Of a stretch of 64,000 bases of DNA, positions 13,009-64,000 are shown one piece after another. The stretch lies in contig JBBROJ010000008.1 of assembly GCA_038229495.1 (NCBI GenBank), positions 4,233 to 68,232 of the forward strand, written 5' to 3'. The DNA comes from Chthonomonadales bacterium. Lineage in GTDB: Bacteria; Armatimonadota; Chthonomonadetes; Chthonomonadales; CAJBBX01. Below the pieces are notes generated by a model. That model had not been told where the DNA came from. It ran no database searches and saw only the letters and a program-made list of their open reading frames with translations. The translations under genes and the position numbers were made by a program. Every line of letters starts with the position of its first letter. The stretch's first letter is position 1.

Positions 13009-14808
13009 GTGAAAGCGTCCCAACTGTTTATTCCCACGCTTCGCGAAGTGCCTTCGGAAGCGGAGATTATAAGCCACAGATTGATGCTGCGCGGCGGATT
13101 CGTGCGCAAACTTGCCGCCGGCGTATACAGCTATCTGCCGCTGGGCCTGCGCGTCCACCAGAAGATAGCAAACATCGTGCGCGAGGAGATGAATGCGATA
13201 GGCGGGCAGGAGTTGTTCATGCCCGTGCTTGTGCCGAAGGAGCTACTGGACGAGTCGGGCCGCTCGAGCGTGGACGTGCTTTTCCCGCTCAAGGACAAAA
13301 ATCAGCGCGACTTCTTTCTCGGCTTCACCCATGAAGAGGTCGTAACGGACATCGTCCGCAGCTACGTCACTTCATGGAAGCAGCTTCCGCTGACCCTGTA
13401 TCAGATACAGACGAAGTTTCGCGACGAAGCCCGCCCGCGCGGCGGCCTGATTCGCGGACGCGAGTTCACGATGAAGGATTCCTACAGCTTCGATTTCGAT
13501 GAAGAGGGGCTGGATAGAAGCTTTCAGTCGCACCGCGCCGCCTACGAGCGAATCTTCGTCCGCTGTGGATTGGAATACCTCGTCATAGATGCCGACTCGG
13601 GCGCCATCGGCGGCTCGCAGAGCAACGAGTTCATGGTGCTGGCCGAGAGCGGCGAAGACACTGTTCTCCTCTGCGATTCGTGCGGCTACGCGGCCAATGC
13701 GGAGAAGGCGGGGATAGGGCGAGTCGAGAGTCGAGAGTCGGGAGTGGTGAGTCGGGAGTCGAGAGTCGAGGGTACCGGGCAGCCGACCGTAGGGGCTGTT
13801 GCCGTACAATCCAAAATCCAAAATCCAAAATCCAAAACCGTCTCCACGCCCGGCGCGCATACCGTTGCCCAGGTCTGCGAGTTCCTCAGCGTGGATCCAA
13901 CTCAGCTTATCAAGACGATTATCGTGACTGCCGGTGGTACTCCCCGTGGTACGCCCGTAGCCGCGCTCGTGCGCGGCGACCGCGAGCTGAACCTGGCAAA
14001 ACTTGCTGCTTTCTTACAGATGGGGCCGGTGGAGATGGCGGACGCGGTCGTCGTTCAGCGTGTTACCGGCGCGCCTGTCGGATTCGCCGGGCCGGTCGGC
14101 CTTACCGGCGTTCGAATCGTGGCCGACTACGAGCTTCAAGGCACGTCCGATTTGGTGGTTGGCGCGAACGAGAACGACGCGCATCGCGTTGGGGTAACAC
14201 CCGAGGTGGATTTCGCCGTTTCAGACTGGGCGGATATTCGCGTCGCGATTGCGGGGGACCCCTGCGTGCAAGCGGGTTGTACCGGCCATTATACGGAGGC
14301 GCATGGCATCGAGGTTGGCCACATCTTCAAGTTGGGCACGAAGTACAGCCGGGACATGAAGGCCCAGGTGCAGTTGGAGACGGGCGAAAACCGCGACGTG
14401 ATAATGGGCTGCTATGGGCTTGGGATCAGCCGGACCATGGCTTCGGCCATTGAAGCGCACCACGACGCGGATGGAATCATATGGCCCGCGGGTATCGCCC
14501 CCTTCGAAGCGGTTATCATTCCGGTAAACATGAAGGACGAGGCGCAGTGCTCGGCTGCCACGACGCTCTACGCGGACCTCCAATCGCGGGGCGTGGAAGC
14601 GCTTCTCGACGACCGTGACGAGCGATCCGGAGTAAAGTTCAAGGATGCCGATCTGATCGGCTATCCGGTAAAGATCGTCATTGGCCGAGGACTTGCCGAA
14701 GGCAATGTCGAGGTTGGCCTGCGCAGGGACAAGAGCTCGACTGAAGCGGTTCCAGTGGCTGAAGCCGCTGCGCACATTGCCACGCTCGTGAATCGATTGA
14801 AGACATAG
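13009..14808 (+). CDS. proS: Proline--tRNA ligase (bacterial type with editing domain) carrying an in-frame repeat insertion
   Basis: KASQLFIPTLRE start, SHRLMLRGG..RKLAAGVY, FRDEARPRGGLIRGREF.MKDSYSF, EVGHIFKLGTKYS, MGCYG.G.SR, GVKFKDADLIG. Confidence 0.97.
   Translation: MKASQLFIPTLREVPSEAEIISHRLMLRGGFVRKLAAGVYSYLPLGLRVHQKIANIVREEMNAIGGQELFMPVLVPKELLDESGRSSVDVLFPLKDKNQRDFFLGFTHEEVVTDIVRSYVTSWKQLPLTLYQIQTKFRDEARPRGGLIRGREFTMKDSYSFDFDEEGLDRSFQSHRAAYERIFVRCGLEYLVIDADSGAIGGSQSNEFMVLAESGEDTVLLCDSCGYAANAEKAGIGRVESRESGVVSRESRVEGTGQPTVGAVAVQSKIQNPKSKTVSTPGAHTVAQVCEFLSVDPTQLIKTIIVTAGGTPRGTPVAALVRGDRELNLAKLAAFLQMGPVEMADAVVVQRVTGAPVGFAGPVGLTGVRIVADYELQGTSDLVVGANENDAHRVGVTPEVDFAVSDWADIRVAIAGDPCVQAGCTGHYTEAHGIEVGHIFKLGTKYSRDMKAQVQLETGENRDVIMGCYGLGISRTMASAIEAHHDADGIIWPAGIAPFEAVIIPVNMKDEAQCSAATTLYADLQSRGVEALLDDRDERSGVKFKDADLIGYPVKIVIGRGLAEGNVEVGLRRDKSSTEAVPVAEAAAHIATLVNRLKT
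13721..13835 (+). repeat. Heptamer tandem arrays inside proS: (gagtcgr)x7 at 13721-13769 and (aatccaa)x4 at 13808-13835
   Basis: Read directly; translated as RVESRESGVVSRESRVE and QSKIQNPKSK. Confidence 0.95.
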
Positions 14809-24320: not shown

Positions 24321-24402
24321 GTCAACTGGTCAATTAGTCAATGAGTAAATGAACAGCCTTCTCGATGACCCATTGACCCGTTGACTAATTGACTAATTGA
24401 CC
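24321..24402. repeat. Inverted pair of octamer arrays (GTCAATka / ttGACtaa) filling the rpsA-coaE gap
   Basis: 4 units at 24321-24352; about 5 inverted units at 24365-24402. Confidence 0.85.
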
Positions 24403-29844: not shown

Positions 29845-29848
29845 AGTA

Positions 29849-29943
29849 GGCGTGAGGCGTGAGGCGTGAGGCGTGAGGACCAGCGCTACGGTATGTGGCG
29901 GAGGTTGCTCCCTACTCGGAACTCACGTCTGGCGCCTCACGCC
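29849..29943. repeat. Inverted heptamer arrays (ggcgtga)x4 ... (tcacgcc)-like x3
   Basis: Read directly; the accA stop codon (29937-29939) lies inside the right arm. Confidence 0.85.
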
Positions 29944-30917
29944 TGCCGTTCCTCCCACGTTCCGTAGCAGCGCATGCGCTTGTAGCGGGATTCTACGATT
30001 TCCTGTATTTCGAGCGGCTTGAGCGCGCCCAGGTGCTTGATGAGTGCCGCTTTCAGGGTTTCGGCCATCTCCAGCGGGTTGCGGTGGGCGCCGCCCAGCG
30101 GCTCCGGCAACACCTCGTCTATCAGGCTGAACCGTTTGGCATTCTGCGCCGTAAGCTGAAGCGCCTCGGCGGCCTCAGCGCCCTTCGCTTTGTCGTGCCA
30201 TAGAATCGCCGCGCATCCCTCCGGAGAAATCACGGAATAGATGGAGTGCTCCAGCATCAGCACGCGGTCCGCCACGGCCACTCCAAGCGCGCCGCCGCTG
30301 CCGCCTTCGCCAATTACCACGCACACCACGGGCGTCTCCAGCAGGGCGAACTCACGCAGGTTCCGGGCAATCGCTTCGCTCACGCCGTGCTCCTCCGCCT
30401 TCAGGTCCGCCGCCGCGCCTGCTGTATCGACAAACGAGATCAACGGCTTGTGGAACTTCTCGGCCAGCTTTGCCAGGCGCAGCGCCTTGCGGAACCCTTC
30501 CGCATGCGCCATGCCGAAATTGCGCCGCTGACGCTCCTTCAGATCGCGGGCTTTCTGCTGCGCGATGACCACGACCGGCTCGCCATCCAGCCGCGCCAGG
30601 CCGCCGACCACCGCCTCGTCATTGCCCGCCATGCGGTCGCCGGAAAGCTCCATGAATTCGTCGAAGATGCTGCGAATGTAGTCGAGGGCGTAGGGCCGGT
30701 CCTTGTAGCGCGCCATCTGCACCTTCTCCCACGGCGAGAGATTGGTGTAGTGCTGCACCATCACGCGCTGCAGCTCGGCATCCAGCCGGGCAACCTCGAC
30801 GTCCACGTCGATGCCCTGATCGCGAGCTTCAGCCCGCCGTTGGGGACTCCTGAGCTGGATTATAAGGCCCTCCAGCTCGGCTATTACCTGCTCGAAATCG
30901 AACGCATTATCCGCCAT
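29937..30917 (-). CDS. accA: Acetyl-CoA carboxylase carboxyltransferase alpha subunit
   Basis: LSPWEKVQMARYKDRP, ELSGDR, RNFGM, GFRKALRL..LAEKF, DT.GA, IGEGGSGGAL, YSVISPEGCAAILW. Confidence 0.96.
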   Translation of the reverse strand: MADNAFDFEQVIAELEGLIIQLRSPQRRAEARDQGIDVDVEVARLDAELQRVMVQHYTNLSPWEKVQMARYKDRPYALDYIRSIFDEFMELSGDRMAGNDEAVVGGLARLDGEPVVVIAQQKARDLKERQRRNFGMAHAEGFRKALRLAKLAEKFHKPLISFVDTAGAAADLKAEEHGVSEAIARNLREFALLETPVVCVVIGEGGSGGALGVAVADRVLMLEHSIYSVISPEGCAAILWHDKAKGAEAAEALQLTAQNAKRFSLIDEVLPEPLGGAHRNPLEMAETLKAALIKHLGALKPLEIQEIVESRYKRMRCYGTWEERQA

Positions 30918-31861: not shown

Positions 31862-31921
31862 AGTGTTGAGTACCGAGTACTGAGCGCTGAGTTAGTCCGA
31901 CTCAGCGCTCAGCACTCAGCA
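31862..31921. repeat. Inverted heptamer arrays (tgagtac-like x4 / ctcagca-like x3) between accD and pheA
   Basis: tgagtac cgagtac tgagcgc tgagtta ... ctcagcg ctcagca ctcagca. Confidence 0.85.
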
Positions 31922-31932
31922 CAGAGGTGTTC

Positions 31933-39382: not shown

Positions 39383-39452
39383 GTCTTCCGTCTTCCGTCT
39401 TCCGTCTTCCGTCTTCCGACTTCCGTCTTCCGACTTCCGTCTTCCGACTTCC
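39383..39452. repeat. Heptamer array (gwcttcc)x10
   Basis: gtcttcc x5, then alternating gacttcc/gtcttcc; begins 8 bp past the stop of the 39460-40401 gene. Confidence 0.95.
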
Positions 39453-40872: not shown

Positions 40873-40925
40873 CAGGAACTCACCTAACGCAGACGAATGA
40901 GCACAAACCAATGCGCGTGAATGCG

Positions 40926-41078
40926 AGGGGCTATCGGCCCTCGCTGTGGGGCCTTCGGCCTCGTGTCCTTCTACAAGGACACCTGCGACGCACGGTTCGA
41001 CAACCTGGTGCGGCGGATTCTCCACGCAGATGAAGAAGAAGCGGCGCAACCGCTCCACAGCGAGAGCCGACAGCCCCT
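40926..41078 (+). ncRNA. Candidate structured RNA (6S-like closed-stem architecture; MITE not excluded)
   Basis: 27-nt ends are complementary (aggggctatcggccctcgctgtggggc / gctccacagcgagagccgacagcccct); internal hairpins; terminator follows. Confidence 0.4.
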
Positions 41079-41101
41079 AGCACGCCAGTAGCAGGTTCAT
41101 G

Positions 41102-41140
41102 AAAGCCCCGCGGTTTAGCGCACCGACCGCGGGGCTTTTT
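41102..41140 (+). terminator. Intrinsic terminator
   Basis: aaagccccgcgg...ccgcggggc-ttttt. Confidence 0.85.
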
Positions 41141-41759: not shown

Positions 41760-42166
<407 letters not shown>

Positions 42167-47536: not shown

Positions 47537-47561
47537 GTCGTGACTGTAAACCGGACAACCA

Positions 47562-47666
47562 GTAAATGTGTCAATGGGTAAATTGGTCAATGGGTAAATC
47601 AATCAATGGGTAAATTGGTCAATGAATCTAGGCGCGTTGACCCATTGACCAGTTTACCCGTTGACT
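47562..47666. repeat. Inverted octamer arrays (gtmaatkg x8 / cattgacc-like x4)
   Basis: Same unit family as 24321-24402. Confidence 0.88.
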
Positions 47667-47732
47667 GACAGCAAAACGGGAGCGTGGGACCTTCTCCCAC
47701 GCTCCCGCAAGCCTATCTATTCCGTTTTCAAT

Positions 47733-58419: not shown

Positions 58420-58932
58420 ATGAGCGGATTTACAGGGACAATTTTAAGGCAGTTACTGCTGAGGCCGCGCGTTAAACGGGCGACGTGGCCGCAGCTCTGC
58501 GCGGCGGCGATGGCGCTGCACGAGCGATTTGCCGCGATGATCGACGGCGTCACGGAGGCGGGCGCAGCCGTGGAGGGGGATGATGGGTTCTCTCTGCGTT
58601 CCATCTTCTCCCACCTGGCGACGGAGAACCGCCGCACCGCCGCTGTGCTAGACGCCATCCAGCGCGGGATGCCGCCTGGTGCTGTCCCGCCTGTGATTGC
58701 ACGGACTCTGTCCGAGGCGCGGGCGGCCTACGCGGATTCGTGGCGGATGCTCGGCGAGGCGGCCGCCGCGCCCATTGCAAGCCCGGCGACCGTAGAGCAC
58801 GAGATGTTCGGCCCGCTCAGCGCGGCGGAATGGCTGGCGCTGGTCGGCTACCAGCACGAGCTGCACGCCCGGCGTATCGAGCGGATCATGGCGTCGGAAA
58901 AGTACCGAAAAACGCAGGGAGCGGCGTGGTAA
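58420..58932 (+). CDS. DinB/DUF664-like protein
   Basis: SLRSIFSHLA..., H.MFGPLSAAEWL.LV..QHELHARRIERI. Confidence 0.75.
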   Translation: MSGFTGTILRQLLLRPRVKRATWPQLCAAAMALHERFAAMIDGVTEAGAAVEGDDGFSLRSIFSHLATENRRTAAVLDAIQRGMPPGAVPPVIARTLSEARAAYADSWRMLGEAAAAPIASPATVEHEMFGPLSAAEWLALVGYQHELHARRIERIMASEKYRKTQGAAW

Positions 58933-58942
58933 CCCAACAGCT

Positions 58943-59083
58943 TTTTCACCACGAAGAACACGAAGAACACGAAGAAAGACACCAGGAAAGACAAAACCAC
59001 ATTTTCTCTGTGTCTCTGTGGTTCAAAAGTCTTTGACGTTCTTGGTGACGTTCTTCGTGTTCTTCGTGACTTCGTGGTGAAAA
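58943..59083. repeat. 141-bp inverted-repeat element of 9-mers (cacgaagaa)n
   Basis: ttttcaccacgaag... / ...cttcgtggtgaaaa ends; ~40-bp arms; inner ctctgtgtctctgtggtt. Confidence 0.9.
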
Positions 59084-59106
59084 TAGTCTTTGAAGGAGAT
59101 GTGACC

Positions 59107-60330
59107 GTGATTACGGTTTGGAAAGAGCAGGCGGACGCGGGAGTTACCTTCGCGGAGGGCTTTGTGGCGGCCGGGGTGCGTTGCGGATTGAAGACGGAGG
59201 GAGGCGACCTCGCCCTCATCGTCTGCGACAGCGCGGCCACCGTGGCCGGCGTATTCACCACGAACTTCGTGCAGGCCAGCTGTGTCACCTGGTCTCGCCG
59301 GGTGGTGCGGACAGGCGCGGCGCGCGCCATCCTCTGCAACGCCGGCAACGCAAACGCCTGCAACGGCGAGCGGGGCGAGGAGGACACCCGCGCGATGGCG
59401 GGACTGGTAGCGCACGACCTGAAGATCAGCCCCGGCGAGGTTCTGATCGCCTCAACCGGGATCATCGGGCATCCGATGCCGATGGAAAAGATCGAAGCGG
59501 GCGTCCCGGCGGTAGTTGAGGCGCTGGATCGCGAAGGCAGCGTTGACATGTCCGTCGCGCGGGCCATCATGACCACCGATACGCGGCCCAAGACGATTGC
59601 CGCGGCCTGTGATTCCGATGCCTGGACCGGCGCGATGCGAATCGGCGGCAGCTGTAAAGGCTCCGGCATGATCGCGCCTAACATGGCGACCATGCTCTGT
59701 TTCGTCACCTGCGACGCGCGCATCCCCTCGCCGCTCCTCCAGAAGGCGCTCTCGCGCGCGGTGGCGCGAACCTTCAACCGCATGACCGTTGATGGCGATA
59801 CCAGTACGAACGACATGGTCCTGCTGCTGGCGTCCGGCATGGGCGACTGCCGCATATCCGTGGAAGGCCCCGCCTACGAGGATTTTTGCGAGGCGCTGGA
59901 GCGGATATGCCTCCAACTTGCCAAAGAGGTCGCACGCGACGGCGAGGGGGCGACAAAGCTGGTCGAGGTCGTCGTCCAGGGCGCATTGTCCGAAGACGGC
60001 GCCGCGAAGATCGCAAAAACGATTGCCGAATCGCCGCTCGTCAAGACCGCTCTGTTCGGCTGCGACCCCAACTGGGGCCGAATTCTGATGGCGGCGGGCC
60101 GCGCGGGCGTTGCATTCGCCGCCGAGCATGCCGAAGTGCTGCTCGGCGATATCTCCGTCTTCCTCGACGGATCGGGCGTCGCCTTCGACGAGCTGGCTGC
60201 CCACGACTACCTCAAGTCTCCCGAAGTCCGAATCACGCTCGACCTCCACGCCGGCGAATCCTCCGCCACCGTCTGGACCTGCGACTACTCCTACGACTAT
60301 ATCCGAATTAATGCGGAGTACCGTACTTGA
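59107..60330 (+). CDS. argJ: Ornithine acetyltransferase / N-acetylglutamate synthase ArgJ
   Basis: AGVFTTN, NAGNANAC.G, ASTGIIG, IMTTDT.PK, KGSGMIAPNMATML, DGDTSTND, DGEGATK, S.LVKTA.FG.DPNWGRI, WTCD.S.DYIRINAEY. Confidence 0.97.
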   Translation: MITVWKEQADAGVTFAEGFVAAGVRCGLKTEGGDLALIVCDSAATVAGVFTTNFVQASCVTWSRRVVRTGAARAILCNAGNANACNGERGEEDTRAMAGLVAHDLKISPGEVLIASTGIIGHPMPMEKIEAGVPAVVEALDREGSVDMSVARAIMTTDTRPKTIAAACDSDAWTGAMRIGGSCKGSGMIAPNMATMLCFVTCDARIPSPLLQKALSRAVARTFNRMTVDGDTSTNDMVLLLASGMGDCRISVEGPAYEDFCEALERICLQLAKEVARDGEGATKLVEVVVQGALSEDGAAKIAKTIAESPLVKTALFGCDPNWGRILMAAGRAGVAFAAEHAEVLLGDISVFLDGSGVAFDELAAHDYLKSPEVRITLDLHAGESSATVWTCDYSYDYIRINAEYRT

Positions 60331-60783
60331 GGGATGAGGGATGAGGGATGAGTAGAATCGACAGATTTGAAGATTTGATTGCATGGCAAAAGGCGCGAGC
60401 GCTTACTAAAGCAGTATACGAAATTTCGCGACAGGGCGCGTTCTCGTAAGACTACGGTCTTGCAAGCCAGATTCAACGCGCGGCAGTGTCAGTCATGTCA
60501 AATATTGCAGAGGGTAACGAGCGAGGTAGAACCGCTGAATATTTCAACTTTCTTTGTATCGCGAAGGCTTCCTGCGCTTAGCTTCGCTCACAATTGTATG
60601 TCGCGTTCGATGCGGGCTACATAGATCGCGACGCGTTCGATCATCTACGGAACCAGGCCGAAGAGGTTGGAAGGGTGGTTGGCGGCCTTCGCGCTTCCAT
60701 TGAGAGACTAAAGAATTCATGAGCATACGATCAGCAGAGCCAGTGAGGGACTCTCATCCCTCATCCCTCATCCCTCATCCCTC
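60328..60783. mobile_element. Heptamer-array-flanked four-helix-bundle cassette
   Basis: (tgaggga)x3.5 at 60328-60352 and inverted (ctcatcc)x4 at 60753-60783 bracket a four-helix-bundle pseudogene. Confidence 0.7.
60348..60722 (+). pseudogene. Four-helix-bundle (IVS/23S rRNA-IVP-like, TIGR02436-type) protein with two nonsense codons
   Basis: FEDLIAWQKAR.L...VY...[22 protein letters not shown].......FL.IAKASCA.LRSQLY.A.D.GYI; TAA at 60447-60449, TAG at 60579-60581; missed by the ORF track. Confidence 0.9.
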
Positions 60784-61639
60784 GGACGCCGCTCTCCGGG
60801 CGGGCGTCCTCATCGAAGCGCTGCCCTATCTGCGGCAGTTCTACGGAAAGACGCTTGTCGTGAAGTATGGCGGCAATGCTATGATCGACGACACGCTGAA
60901 GGGGCAGGTGATGCAGGACATCGCGCTGCTACACTACGTGGGAATCAGGCCGATTCTGGTACACGGCGGCGGGCCGGAGATCTCGGCGTTGATGAAGCAG
61001 ATGGGTCATGAGCCGACCTTCGTTGGCGGCCTGCGCGTTACGGATGCGGCGACCATGGAGATTGTAGAGATGGCACTGGCGGGCAAGGCCAACAAGGGGA
61101 TTGTGGCGCTGCTGAACCGGCAGGGGGCGAAGGCGGTGGGTCTGAGCGGCAAGGACGCAAACCTCATCGTGGCGCACAAGATGGAGTCGCCGAACGGGGA
61201 CCTTGGATTCGTGGGCGAGATCGAGCAGATCAATGCCGCCCTTCTCAAACTGTTGGCGGACGAGGGCTATATTCCGGTCATCTCGTCGGTGGCGATTGGC
61301 GAGGACGGCGAATCATACAACGTAAACGCCGACCACGCCGCCGGCGCAATCGCGGCGGAGGTGAAGGCCGCGAAGCTGATTATTCTGACGGATGTCGAGG
61401 GACTGTACGCCAACTATCCGGACAAGGATTCGCTCATCTCGGAGATGGACATTGCGCGGGCAAAGGAAATGCTTGCCTCCGGCGCGGCGGAGAAGGGTAT
61501 GATTCCGAAGGTGGAGGCCTGCATCACCGCATTAGAAGGCGGCGTCGAGCGCGCCCACATGATCGATGGCCGCCTTCCCCACGCGATTCTCATCGAGGTC
61601 TTCACCGATACCGGAATCGGGACTATGATTCGGGCATGA
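60719..61639 (+). CDS. argB: Acetylglutamate kinase
   Basis: LIEALPY..QF.GKTLVVKYGGNAM, VHGGGPEI, GLRVTD, GLSGKD, GFVGEI, YNVNAD, LTDV.G, GMIPKV, DGRLPH.ILIE.FTD.GIGT. Confidence 0.97.
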   Translation: MSIRSAEPVRDSHPSSLIPHPSDAALRAGVLIEALPYLRQFYGKTLVVKYGGNAMIDDTLKGQVMQDIALLHYVGIRPILVHGGGPEISALMKQMGHEPTFVGGLRVTDAATMEIVEMALAGKANKGIVALLNRQGAKAVGLSGKDANLIVAHKMESPNGDLGFVGEIEQINAALLKLLADEGYIPVISSVAIGEDGESYNVNADHAAGAIAAEVKAAKLIILTDVEGLYANYPDKDSLISEMDIARAKEMLASGAAEKGMIPKVEACITALEGGVERAHMIDGRLPHAILIEVFTDTGIGTMIRA

Positions 61640-61674
61640 AAAGACGATTAACACTTAACGGGAGGACGATTGCA

Positions 61675-62142
61675 ATGAAGAAGTTTGGGATACTGCTGTG
61701 CTGTATGTTATGCGTAATTCTGATTGCCGGTACGCGGGTCACCGCGCGGGCGGACATCAAGTCCGACATGATCGCTATTATGGACAAGCTAGGAGTGGAC
61801 AAGCCGGGAAATGAGGCGCTGATCGATTGGGATCACCTCGTCATCAACACGCCGCAGACCAAGGGAATGAATCTGAACTCCATGTACAAGTCGATGGATG
61901 CAAAGAACAAAAAGGCCTTCCGCACCAGCTTCCTGAAGTCGTTCGCATCCTCGTTCAAGCAGAGCTCCGGCGGGCACAAATTCTCTGAAACCGCCAAGCT
62001 GAAGGGCGCGATCACAGTCGACGGTAAAGGCGGTCATCCAACGATGACACTTCATCAGAAGCAGACCAAAGGCGACCTGAAGATATTCTATATACGTAAG
62101 GGCAAGCAGCTTCTCTTCCAGGGGATGGAGAGCAAGAGTTAA
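61675..62142 (+). CDS. Exported hypothetical protein
   Basis: GGAGG RBS, signal peptide (MKKFGILLCC...ARA), Lys-rich body. Confidence 0.7.
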   Translation: MKKFGILLCCMLCVILIAGTRVTARADIKSDMIAIMDKLGVDKPGNEALIDWDHLVINTPQTKGMNLNSMYKSMDAKNKKAFRTSFLKSFASSFKQSSGGHKFSETAKLKGAITVDGKGGHPTMTLHQKQTKGDLKIFYIRKGKQLLFQGMESKS

Positions 62143-62203
62143 GTCGCCAAACGCCCTCACGGGCGAAATTGCTAACCCGAGCTTGAATTCATCCTTATTG
62201 GAA

Positions 62204-62260
62204 TTTACCGTCCGGAGGACGTTCGGCCGTGGGCCCCCCAGACACGCGTTTTACACGCGG
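62204..62260 (+). repeat. Partial copy of the MITE/REP family (tttaccgtccgg...cgttttacacgcg)
   Basis: Matches the core and right end of 15020-15078. Confidence 0.65.
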
Positions 62261-62328
62261 GGTACGACAGATGTATACGCGCGGACCCAGCTCCGGTTTT
62301 AACCGCTTGCTCCGAAAGGAAACCAATC

Positions 62329-63549
62329 ATGACCACCCTGACACATGAACAGATTAATACCGCGGACATCATGGCGCTTGACCGCGAAGTCGTGATGGGC
62401 ACGTACGCGCGTCAGCAGGTGGTCTTCGTGCGTGGCGAGGGCGCGCGCCTTTGGGATTCGGAAGGCCGGGAGTATCTGGACTTTCTGGCCGGAATCGCGG
62501 TCTGCGGCGTCGGGCACTGTCATCCGAGGGTCGCGCGGGCGATAGCCGAGCAGGCGCGCACGCTCATGCACGTCTCGAATCTGTTTCACAACCCGCTGCA
62601 AGCCGAGCTTGCGAAGCGGCTTACCGAACTGACCGGCATGCGGAAGGCCTTCTTCTGCAACTCGGGGGCGGAGGCCAACGAAGCGGCGATTAAGATCGCC
62701 CGCAAGTGGGGCAAGGCGCATAAGGGGCCGGACTGCCACGAGATAATCACGTTCCACGGCTCCTTCCACGGCAGGACGCTCGCGACCGTCACGGCGACCG
62801 CGCAGCCGAAGTACCAGGCCCCGTTCACGCCGCTGCCCGAAGGATTCCGCTATCTGCCGCTGAATGACCTTGCCGCGCTGGATGAGGCGCTCGGCGAGCA
62901 GACCTGCGCCGTGATGATCGAGCCGATTCAGGGCGAGAGCGGCGTCAACGTGGTCGCGCCGGAGTTTCTGGCGGCGATTCGCGCGCTCTGCGACGAAAGC
63001 GAGACGCTGCTGATTCTGGACGAGGTGCAGTGCGGTCTCGGGCGTACCGGGCATTTCCTCGCGAGCCAGCGGGCGGGAGTGCAGGGCGACATCGTGACGC
63101 TTGCCAAAAGTATCGCGGACGGCATGCCAATGGGCTGCTGCCTTGCGCGAGGCAGCGCCGCCGATACGCTCGTCCCCGGCGACCACGGCTCTACCTTCGG
63201 CGGACAGCCGCTCGCCTGCGCCGCGGCCCTGGCCGTGCTGGACGTGATTGAGGAGGAGGGCCTTCTGGAGAACGCCGCGCGAGTCGGGGCCTATTTCCTC
63301 GACGGTCTGCGGCAGCTCCAATTCCGGCTGCCGGGCGTCATCATGGAAGCGCGGGGCGCGGGCCTCATGGTCGGCCTGGAGCTGAGCGTTCCCCATGCGA
63401 AAGAGACGAATCGCGGATTGATGGAGCGCGGAATCATCGCCAATGTCATCGGAGATACTGTCCTTCGCTTCCTTCCGCCGCTCATCGTCACCAAAGCCGA
63501 CTGCGACCGCGTCATCGAGGCGTTGGTAGGAATACTAACGGCAATTTAA
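62329..63549 (+). CDS. argD: Acetylornithine aminotransferase
   Basis: YLDFLAGIAV..VGH.HP, FFCNSGAEANEAAIK, FHGRT, EPIQGESG, DEVQCG.GRTG, DIVTLAK, GDHGSTFGG.PLAC, LRFLPPL. Confidence 0.96.
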   Translation: MTTLTHEQINTADIMALDREVVMGTYARQQVVFVRGEGARLWDSEGREYLDFLAGIAVCGVGHCHPRVARAIAEQARTLMHVSNLFHNPLQAELAKRLTELTGMRKAFFCNSGAEANEAAIKIARKWGKAHKGPDCHEIITFHGSFHGRTLATVTATAQPKYQAPFTPLPEGFRYLPLNDLAALDEALGEQTCAVMIEPIQGESGVNVVAPEFLAAIRALCDESETLLILDEVQCGLGRTGHFLASQRAGVQGDIVTLAKSIADGMPMGCCLARGSAADTLVPGDHGSTFGGQPLACAAALAVLDVIEEEGLLENAARVGAYFLDGLRQLQFRLPGVIMEARGAGLMVGLELSVPHAKETNRGLMERGIIANVIGDTVLRFLPPLIVTKADCDRVIEALVGILTAI

Positions 63550-63675
63550 CCGCCCGGTTCGCTAGAGACGCAGAGCAAACAGAGAAAGGCTTATACCGCC
63601 AGACACTGTTGAATTCTACGCTTGCCTTCGTATTTTCTCTGCGATCTCTGTGTCTCTAGCGAAGCGGGCGGTTAA
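63546..63675. repeat. 130-bp inverted-repeat element with 9-mer-like arms; the argD stop TAA forms its left end
   Basis: ttaaccgccc..ttcgctagagacgcagag / ctctgtgtctctagcgaa..gggcggttaa. Confidence 0.85.
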
Positions 63676-63705
63676 TTCGTCTTTGACGTTTGAGGAGGAT
63701 TGGTT

Positions 63706-64000
63706 ATGTGGCAGCGGTTTTCGGAACGCGCGCGAAAGGTGATTTTCTTCTCTCAGGAAGAAGCTGGACGATTAGGACAAAATTGTGTTTCGACCGAGCA
63801 TTTGCTCCTCGGCCTTTTGCGCGAGAATGACACTGTCGCTGCACGAATTATCGAGAGATTGGGCTTCGACTTAATTCGAATCAGAGGCGAGGTAGATAGG
63901 CGGGCGCCTTGTGGAGAAGAGCGACCGGGACAGGAAATGTGTTTGGTTCCCGATGCCAAGCAGGTTATCGATTTTGCCTACGAGGAAGCTCAACGTATAG
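63706..64000 (+). CDS. Clp N-terminal (Clp_N) domain protein, truncated by window end
   Basis: GAGGAGG RBS; MWQRFSERARKVIFFSQEEA.RLG...V.TEHLLLGLLRE; whether an AAA domain follows cannot be seen. Confidence 0.85.
   Translation, partial: MWQRFSERARKVIFFSQEEAGRLGQNCVSTEHLLLGLLRENDTVAARIIERLGFDLIRIRGEVDRRAPCGEERPGQEMCLVPDAKQVIDFAYEEAQRI

Follow-up and report, generated by a model that had tools for sequence, protein, structure and literature searches.

A 64,000-nucleotide stretch of a Chthonomonadales genome (contig C8:4233-68232 of a 5.13-Mb, 235-contig Armatimonadota assembly; hereafter, the window) was analyzed, and positions 60328-60783 were found to hold a promoterless gene of the PF05635 four-helix-bundle family that is enclosed by inverted heptamer arrays and inserted in the sense direction at the junction of argJ and argB in the arginine operon. 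This 456-nt segment contains an open reading frame (ORF) of the S23p family and terminal inverted repeats with a stem of at least 20 bp, and its size falls within about 400-750 nt. Its architecture and its identity as a cassette of the intervening sequence (IVS) type are practically beyond doubt. Taken as a whole, the data make it fairly probable that this is a selfish cassette that is removed at the RNA level and whose protein acts in partnership with the repeats. The locus consists of the following parts.

59074..60330, + strand: argJ, bifunctional ornithine acetyltransferase (NCBIfam NF003802, 497 bits; TIGR00120, 464 bits).
60328..60352, + strand: 5' arm, (TGAGGGA)3.6 (Tandem Repeats Finder, TRF, 100% match; inverted repeat 25/25).
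60348..60722, + strand: four-helix-bundle pseudogene of 124 codons (PF05635 / TIGR02436, S23p-type; by translation, Pfam and NCBIfam).
60753..60783, + strand: 3' arm, (CTCATCC)4.4, complement of the 5' arm (TRF 100% match; inverted repeat 25/25).
60719..61639, + strand: argB, acetylglutamate kinase (TIGR00761, 270 bits from residue 45).

The stop codon of argJ, TGA at 60328-60330, is the opening triplet of the 5' arm, and the ATG of the cassette gene (60348) sits in the last unit of the same arm. Any array of at least three TGAGGGA heptamers presents a TGA in all three frames. The 3' arm has no stop codon in any of the three frames and falls within the argB reading frame. The two arms are complementary at 25 of 25 positions with a spacing of 400 nt, and RNA folding closed both of them into one long stem (minimum free energy, -176.6 kcal/mol; z, -3.55). 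An earlier note on the window had described an array at the argJ stop codon, its inverse 400 nt farther on, and a 124-codon gene with two nonsense codons in between, and every detail of that description holds. A Logan contig from the source metagenome, which is the same sample and not an independent one, spanned 60370-60781 and showed no change at either nonsense codon. In one Logan contig of this metagenome, the left arm was one heptamer shorter. The summed depth of the right-arm words was about 1200 versus about 10 for the flanks; the same heptamer array is therefore present at very many sites in that metagenome. An Rfam scan of 58500-64000 gave no matches, and no 23S rRNA gene was found in the assembly; the cassette lies in an operon, not in a 23S rRNA helix. 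Of the parts of a transposon, the cassette has the terminal inverted repeats and no transposase.

The cassette gene matched PF05635 (23S_rRNA_IVP) with 117 bits versus a cut-off of 33.8 (E, 5.5e-34; positions 1-104 of 106) and TIGR02436 with 106 bits versus a cut-off of 24 (E, 9.9e-31) when its stops were entered as X. It is broken by a TAA at 60447-60449 and a TAG at 60579-60581, and is a pseudogene copy rather than an intact member of the family; the nearest intact homologues are 81% and 76% identical to it. The gene died later while the arms stayed perfect. Pseudogenes account for two of the six PF05635 copies in this genome. One or two internal stops were also present in 12 of 150 PF05635 matches among the matches listed for Armatimonadota, and such pseudogenes are common.

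An intact paralogue matched structure 2GSC (XCC0516), an entry with five chains, at an E value of 2e-13. Both 2GSC and bAvd (PDB 4DWL, named in PMC10053308) belong to the four-helix-bundle superfamily, and the cassette protein gave weak matches of 28 bits to the bAvd-like and DivGenRetAVD models. These matches are what speaks for the gene being the Avd of a diversity-generating retroelement, with the arrays as its template and variable repeats (TR/VR). The scores are far under the respective cut-offs of 40 and 80 bits, however; the sole reverse-transcriptase gene, apparently split, lies on another contig (C60), and the cassette has argJ and argB as its neighbors. In addition, the repeats are tandem arrays of 7-nt units and do not form a TR/VR pair. 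This identification has next to no probability and was rejected on the sub-cut-off Avd scores and the distant reverse-transcriptase gene.

The TGA of the cassette gene overlaps the ATG of argB (ATGA at 60719). The only in-frame starts of argB are this ATG and a GTG at 60743, both of which are within the cassette and 5' of the 3' arm; no in-frame ATG, GTG, or TTG occurs in the stretch from the 3' arm to the conserved VLIEALPY helix of ArgB. As judged from the reading frames, the cassette has replaced the start of argB, and the 3' arm, which reads SHPSSLIPHPS in the argB frame, is predicted to be translated as an N-terminal extension. A slip of one unit (7 nt) in the 3' arm would frameshift argB. 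The gene downstream of the cassette on contig C188 apparently has its own GTG right after the arm (sequence read by eye), and the start codon within the cassette is therefore specific to the argB site rather than general.

The argB gene comes after argJ in 23 relatives from other genera of the same family or order; the spacer is 5-65 nt in 18 of them, and five have unrelated inserts of 103-754 nt. Neither the cassette nor TGAGGGA arrays were found at the junction in any of the 23, and 178 kb around argB from 37 relatives contained zero period-7/8 arrays versus 11 in the 64-kb window. The cassette at argJ-argB is thus a lineage-specific gain that is absent in other genera, and the earlier expectation that such junctions would prove polymorphic was borne out. 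The unrelated inserts were found in relatives L039 (G006), L046 (G013), L052 (G040), and L068/L069 (G024/G026). Among them are a small ORF and a 373-nt block that has both 16-nt tandem repeats and GC-rich palindromes; several unrelated inserts at one place indicate that this junction takes insertions repeatedly.

The closest homologue of the cassette protein, P0001 (locus L250; 81% identity), comes from a metagenome contig of 1.1 kb, on which its neighbors are genes for a membrane protein and an M42 peptidase. Its arms are (AGGGATG)n / (CTCATCC)n, and the first arm unit once more contains the stop codon of the upstream gene. Because P0001 keeps TGAGGGA-type arms in another gene context, the gene and the arms move as one unit. 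The second-closest homologue, P0002 (76% identity, intact), stands in the order ArgJ gene, cassette gene, next gene (JGI sample 3300050046; annotation only), and the next gene overlaps the P0002 stop by 4 nt, like argB in the window. This layout means that the insertion is shared with at least one other lineage or occurred twice at the same place.

Unit similarity and protein identity were correlated in 63 clean loci, for which the Spearman coefficient was -0.14 and none of 500 permutations reached the observed value; the arm units were nearly randomized below about 55% protein identity. In the subfamily of the cassette protein, every arm consists of NNN+TGAG units (e.g., TGAGGAC, TGAGTGC, TGAGGGA, TGAGTAA, and TGAGCAA), often mixed within one arm. 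Base pairing alone needs no invariant TGAG, and this core is therefore under some sequence-specific constraint.

The genome contains six PF05635 loci, one of them frameshifted. Each of the six lies between inverted arrays of period 7 or 8, and the unit differs from locus to locus.

Contig C8 (the window): TGAGGGA.
Contig C188: AGGCGTG.
Contig C144: GGAAGWC.
Contig C34: CAGTGGT.
Contig C174: GGTCAATG.
Contig C162: TGAGGCGA.

Each of the six cassettes lies in the sense orientation between two co-directional genes, and they begin -5 to +10 nt from the upstream stop wherever a co-directional upstream gene is present. The arms on C34 and C162 are unequal in homogeneity and super-period. These unequal arms, together with the one-unit-shorter left arm in the Logan contig, indicate that each arm also changes by slippage. 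A permutation of unit order, by which mirroring of the arms beyond unit identity was assessed, was uninformative for the cassettes except that on C174 (p 0.02). The other same-unit inverted pairs examined, about 400-2300 nt apart, enclose ordinary genes (rpsM, a fliJ-like gene, clpP, and rplF), which is consistent with chance adjacency of common units. Inverted short-repeat arrays have the four-helix-bundle gene as their one specific cargo, as the earlier note had supposed from a single copy.

The occurrence of the same build in other genomes was scored by comparing the two 220-260 nt flanks of the gene for their best ungapped complementarity, with a threshold of at least 14. Related loci were sought with subsets of closer paralogues, since the alignment of all six paralogues was too diverse. 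The scores reached the threshold as follows.

Other Armatimonadota PF05635 loci: 24 of 29, period 7 or 8.
Shifted control windows in the same Armatimonadota loci: 0 of 58.
Random sites in this genome: 2 of 400.
Named genomes of many other phyla: 49 of 76, 38 with a clear period of 7.
Metagenome loci 58-82% identical to the cassette protein: 56 of 72, all period 7.

The phyla in the 49-of-76 set include Acidobacteriota, Nitrospirota, Planctomycetota, Chloroflexota, Deinococcota, Desulfobacterota, Gemmatimonadota, Bacteroidota, and others. In one complete Acidobacteriota chromosome, all nine PF05635 genes are bracketed by inverted arrays of nine different units, and a random 220-kb sample of this chromosome held 155 arrays/Mb. 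Six plasmid genes annotated as 'four helix bundle' or 'S23 ribosomal' (Nostoc, Trichormus, Calothrix, and Riemerella) all had heptamer arrays on at least one side, and three of them had clearly inverted arrays on both sides. The 5' arm showed a polarity, with AGT or AGG on the sense strand in 26 of 32 clean cases versus 1 of 32 for the complement. These results show that the gene-plus-arms unit is the normal state of the PF05635 family across many phyla. In the open-access literature, no paper was found that describes this general architecture or that links dispersed heptamers, including the short tandemly repeated repetitive (STRR) sequences of cyanobacteria, to PF05635.

Short tandem arrays are also dispersed through the genome. 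Arrays of at least three copies and at least 85% match were counted and compared with those in a dinucleotide-shuffled genome.

Period 7: 293 arrays in the genome, 2 in the shuffled genome.
Period 8: 206 arrays in the genome, 3 in the shuffled genome.
Period 9: 72 arrays in the genome, 1 in the shuffled genome.

The counts for periods 7-9 exceed chance, and periods 6 and 10 gave only 34 and 22 arrays, respectively, in the real genome. The 380 heptamer arrays use 74 canonical units, the top six of which account for 204 arrays; 47% are fully intergenic, versus 16% of the genome being non-coding. The octamer GGGTCGTT alone accounts for 76 arrays. The genome therefore has tandem 7-nt units that are dispersed, mostly intergenic, and of few families, which are the traits of STRRs. 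In the whole genome, an inverted partner was present within 250 nt for about 230 of 776 arrays, which form about 105 hairpins. According to gene positions from a crude in-house gene caller, 68 of 82 intergenic hairpins lie between co-directional genes, and 52 of these 68 begin -51 to +31 nt from the upstream stop, in agreement with the stop codons that had been noticed within arrays of the window. The orientation of the hairpins relative to transcription was unbiased (28 vs 39).

The units of the six cassettes are six of the commoner unit families of the genome, and TGAGGGA is common to about 45 gene-less arrays. Among 659 dispersed arrays, 178 (27%) have the exact unit of one of the genome's own cassettes, and 266 are within one mismatch of one; when the cassette units of the Acidobacteriota genome were used instead, there were 0 exact matches and 8 within one mismatch. 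In the reciprocal test in the Acidobacteriota genome, own-unit matches were found for 5 of 34 arrays versus 0 of 34. Co-occurrence was examined in 20 Armatimonadota genomes (at most 40 kb each), both groups of which span several families. In this small and phylogenetically uncorrected sample, ten genomes with at least seven PF05635 genes had 28 arrays in 338 kb (83/Mb; eight of ten genomes positive), whereas ten genomes without PF05635 had one array in 392 kb (2.5/Mb), which was a GC-rich low-complexity repeat. The distribution of PF05635 itself is patchy, with members in 69 of 151 Armatimonadota genomes and a widely varying copy number. The dispersed arrays are associated with PF05635 genes both by co-occurrence and by cognate units, and in this sense of an association the proposal that the cassette is the loaded form of a short-repeat family stands.

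Within one unit family, the loops of the gene-less hairpins differ from copy to copy. They showed no similarity to the cassette interior and contained no gene remnant. The gene-less hairpins are accordingly not identical copies like those of miniature inverted-repeat transposable elements (MITEs); the part that they share is the unit. One alternative is that a host process, e.g., replication slippage plus selection at operon junctions for stems that stabilize or process mRNA, makes and keeps the hairpins, and that PF05635 genes, being small, merely insert into their loops or survive best there, as IVSs do at rRNA helix tips. About 100 gene-less hairpins versus six loaded ones, located at operon junctions beside stop codons, loops unrelated to the PF05635 gene, independently expanding cassette arms (C34 and C162), and the unit-number variant in one Logan contig are all in keeping with such a process. 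On the other hand, it would not lead one to expect that arrays are almost missing from genomes without PF05635 and from close relatives, that the TGAGGGA unit travels with the gene into another context, that the TGAG core, which pairing does not need, is kept in subfamily arms across phyla, or that the dispersed arrays are cognate to the resident cassettes. We therefore regard this alternative as unlikely.

Mobilization of the arrays by Y1 (IS200/IS605-type) transposases, with the four-helix-bundle genes being irrelevant, was considered because seven Y1 genes of the type associated with repetitive extragenic palindromes (REPs), i.e., REP-associated tyrosine transposase (RAYT)-like genes, are present in the genome. 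REPs sit after stop codons in operons. The Y1/REP systems do parallel the PF05635 pattern, in that each gene is flanked by its own repeat, and REPs and the bacterial interspersed mosaic elements (BIMEs) built from them are likewise short palindromic repeats that lie after stops within operons in hundreds of copies. The repeats are different, however: each of the seven Y1 genes is flanked by its own non-tandem palindrome, e.g., GCGAGGGGCTTTCGGCCCTCGC or CCACGGGTTAAAACCCGTGG, and none of them by heptamer or octamer arrays, which flank PF05635 genes instead. Furthermore, the arrays are tandem and periodic rather than a single palindrome, and the associated protein is a 120-aa helical bundle without known catalytic activity. 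Y1 transposases were rejected as array mobilizers on the 0-of-7 count, and the probability left to them is very small.

The nearest known counterpart of the cassette is the IVS of Coxiella burnetii 23S rRNA, a 428-nt element with an S23p (PF05635) ORF (Warrier et al. 2016, PMC4990558). Its terminal inverted repeats pair to give a 28-bp stem that is cut by RNase III, and two to three tandem heptamers (GACAGAT), the number of which varies among strains, stand just before the ATG (PMC4990558). The authors of that study suspect the RNA to be more important than the decaying ORF, and they refer to earlier suggestions that IVSs are mobile elements or remnants of transposition, as well as to an ORF-bearing 23S IVS in Leptospira (Ralph & McClelland 1993, as cited in PMC4990558). 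The argJ-argB cassette resembles this helix-45 IVS in its PF05635 protein, its size (456 nt vs 428-444 nt), its terminal inverted repeats with a stem of 25-28 bp, its tandem heptamers of variable copy number directly before the ATG, and a retained RNA structure with an ORF that is often in decay. It differs in that it lies in a protein-coding operon, that both arms are pure tandem arrays, that the downstream gene starts inside it, and that its unit is shared with about 45 gene-less arrays. Cleavage by RNase III, shown in Coxiella, is a prediction for the cassette.

Based on this comparison, we propose that base pairing of the arms in the operon transcript would give a perfect stem of about 25-29 bp with a loop of 400 nt, and that RNase III could cut this stem as in the Coxiella IVS and release the cassette RNA. 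The RNase III gene (rnc) is present in the genome; a search for RNA-seq runs containing the sequence of the locus found none. Removal at the RNA level would make insertion tolerable within operons and rRNA. By analogy, RNase III processing of the cassette stem has about an even chance of occurring here. The cassette itself would be a selfish mobile unit without a transposase, and that it is mobile is likely. An oligomer of the four-helix-bundle protein may be a sequence-specific partner of the repeat units that aids the spread or upkeep of the arrays; recognition of the repeats by the protein is suggested only tentatively.

Cognate proteins and arrays could also belong to a domesticated system, in which the paralogues are host RNA- or DNA-binding proteins, each specific to one repeat family, the arrays at operon junctions are the operators of a post-transcriptional regulon, each gene is autoregulated through its own arrays, and no mobility is left. 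The correspondence of six divergent paralogues to six different abundant unit families, the position of arrays within operons beside stop and start codons, and the argJ-cassette-next-gene order kept in a second lineage (P0002) would fit such a regulon, and a relative, Avd, is reported to bind RNA and a polymerase (PMC6182149). Pseudogenes are common, however (two of six here; 12 of 150 among the matches listed for the phylum), PF05635 occurs in only 69 of 151 genomes with a widely varying copy number, the cassette is absent from the relatives' junctions, and plasmid-borne copies exist. Such features point to a selfish element more than to a core regulator, and we consider a domesticated regulon improbable, slightly more so than the host process described above.

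Several observations weigh against the selfish cassette. Because the start of argB is within the cassette, stem cleavage by RNase III would sever the start codon from the argB body, and efficient excision would therefore be harmful at argJ-argB. No empty-site or excised form of the cassette was found in the Logan contigs of the source metagenome, and no target-site duplication was visible at its flanks, where there is no closely related empty site for comparison. Given the gene order around P0002, the insertion may be an old one that is inherited stably, not an actively mobile one. The six PF05635 paralogues share just 23-57% identity, which argues against a recent burst. Among the ten commonest unit families, four lack a loaded copy in this fragmented assembly, and the co-occurrence counts carry the restrictions of sample size and phylogeny given with them. 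Finally, variable loops without a gene remnant, together with the lack of orientation bias, indicate that the gene-less hairpins are not simple deletion derivatives of loaded copies, as the earlier note had taken them to be.

Cyanobacterial STRR heptamers were reportedly described by Mazel et al. in 1990. We know of no explanation of their function since then, and to our knowledge they have not been described as inverted pairs around a gene. Like the arrays of the present genome, STRRs are dispersed tandem heptamers that are mostly intergenic and of few unit families per genome, and the plasmids of Nostoc, Trichormus, and Calothrix carry PF05635 genes flanked by heptamer arrays. The present host belongs to another phylum, its units differ from the classical STRR units, and the plasmid units differ from those of STRR1-3; the link to STRRs is drawn from six plasmid loci. 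A broader view, to which we assign somewhat less than an even chance, would be that PF05635 oligomers partner sequence-specifically with tandem heptamer and octamer arrays, that paralogues enclosed by inverted arrays of their own unit are the autonomous copies of a transposase-free selfish element, that the gene-less arrays have spread through operon junctions, and that rRNA IVSs and possibly STRRs are special cases of one cross-phylum class.

Three puzzles have long been separate, namely, the role of the IVS-encoded protein, the nature of IVSs, and the origin of dispersed heptamers such as STRR. The present data tie the first two to the third, a link between PF05635 genes and dispersed heptamer arrays that was not found in the searchable open-access literature. 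To this, the locus contributes the co-occurrence and cognate-unit tests, the TGAG core of the subfamily, the comparison with RAYT genes of the same genome, and a housekeeping gene whose start codon is supplied by a cassette. Cassettes give neighboring genes start codons, stop codons, and translated repeat tracts (e.g., the argB N-terminus), and they break assemblies; annotation pipelines should recognize them. In this assembly, 10 of 470 contig ends are no more than 30 nt away from a period-7-9 array, e.g., on C188, C140, C121, and C177, and the assembly therefore probably lacks some cassettes and arrays. The '23S rRNA IVP' family is listed among CRISPR-array-associated proteins in a figure legend of PMC10910872, and we would guess that this association might be a side effect of repeat detection on the flanking tandem arrays.

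As for the rest of the window, seven further inverted array pairs were confirmed (29-107, 24321-24402, 29848-29944, 31870-31922, 47556-47668, 58950-59068, and 63537-63684), along with eight solitary arrays (at 13721, 13808, 15157, 36325, 38306, 39349, 39383, and 41766). The earlier list of loci was largely correct, but 812 turned out to be a REP-type palindrome of another family and 33039 only a two-copy repeat, and the statement that the loci are mostly inverted array pairs was too strong. The heptamer and octamer arrays that were characterized are as follows.

29848..29944, strand not applicable: gene-less hairpin (AGGCGTG)n, with the unit of the intact C188 cassette and a loop of conserved family A.
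31870..31922, strand not applicable: gene-less heptamer hairpin with AGTACYG / AGYGCTG type units and a 7-nt loop.
47556..47668, strand not applicable: gene-less octamer hairpin of the GGTCAATG type, the unit of the C174 cassette.
24321..24402, strand not applicable: gene-less octamer hairpin, GTCAATTA / GTCAATGA.
39383..39452, strand not applicable: solitary (GTCTTCC)10, of the unit family of the C144 cassette.
13721..13837, strand not applicable: two solitary heptamer arrays, (GAGTCGA)7 and (AATCCAA)4.3.
41766..41797, strand not applicable: solitary (TTCCGAA)4.6.

Within hairpins of three heptamer units, AGGCGTG, AGTGCTG, and AGCAATG, there was a conserved loop module about 45 nt in length (GAGTAGGGAGCAACCTCCGC..GTTGCGCCGTGTTC). 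Taken together, its copies are in both orientations, and they lie at window 29848-29944, C98:8347, C81:21000, C7:26827, C46:25674, C4:31041, and C92:82, and its copy on C92 has internal tandem repeats of about 22 nt. This GAGTAGGGAGCAACCTCCGC module is a second, non-coding cargo of the arrays.

The earlier interpretation as a whole is partly supported; it merged at least three unrelated families into a single one: the heptamer/octamer arrays, 9-mer hairpins with loops of their own, and the REP palindromes that flank Y1 genes. The 9-mer hairpins at 58950-59068 and 63537-63684 (CACGAAGAA type) form a separate family with its own conserved loops (ctctgtgtctctgtg), and no four-helix-bundle gene was found inside them; copies related to these loops occur on C71 and other contigs. 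REP-type palindromes were observed in the window at 795-850 (GCGAGTGAATGAATTCACTCGC) and 40922-41082 (GCGAGGGGCTATCGGCCCTCGC...GTGGGGC), and Y1 (RAYT-like) transposase genes on C170 and C141 have the same palindromes at their flanks. The RNA-like structure at 40926-41140 is probably a REP doublet.

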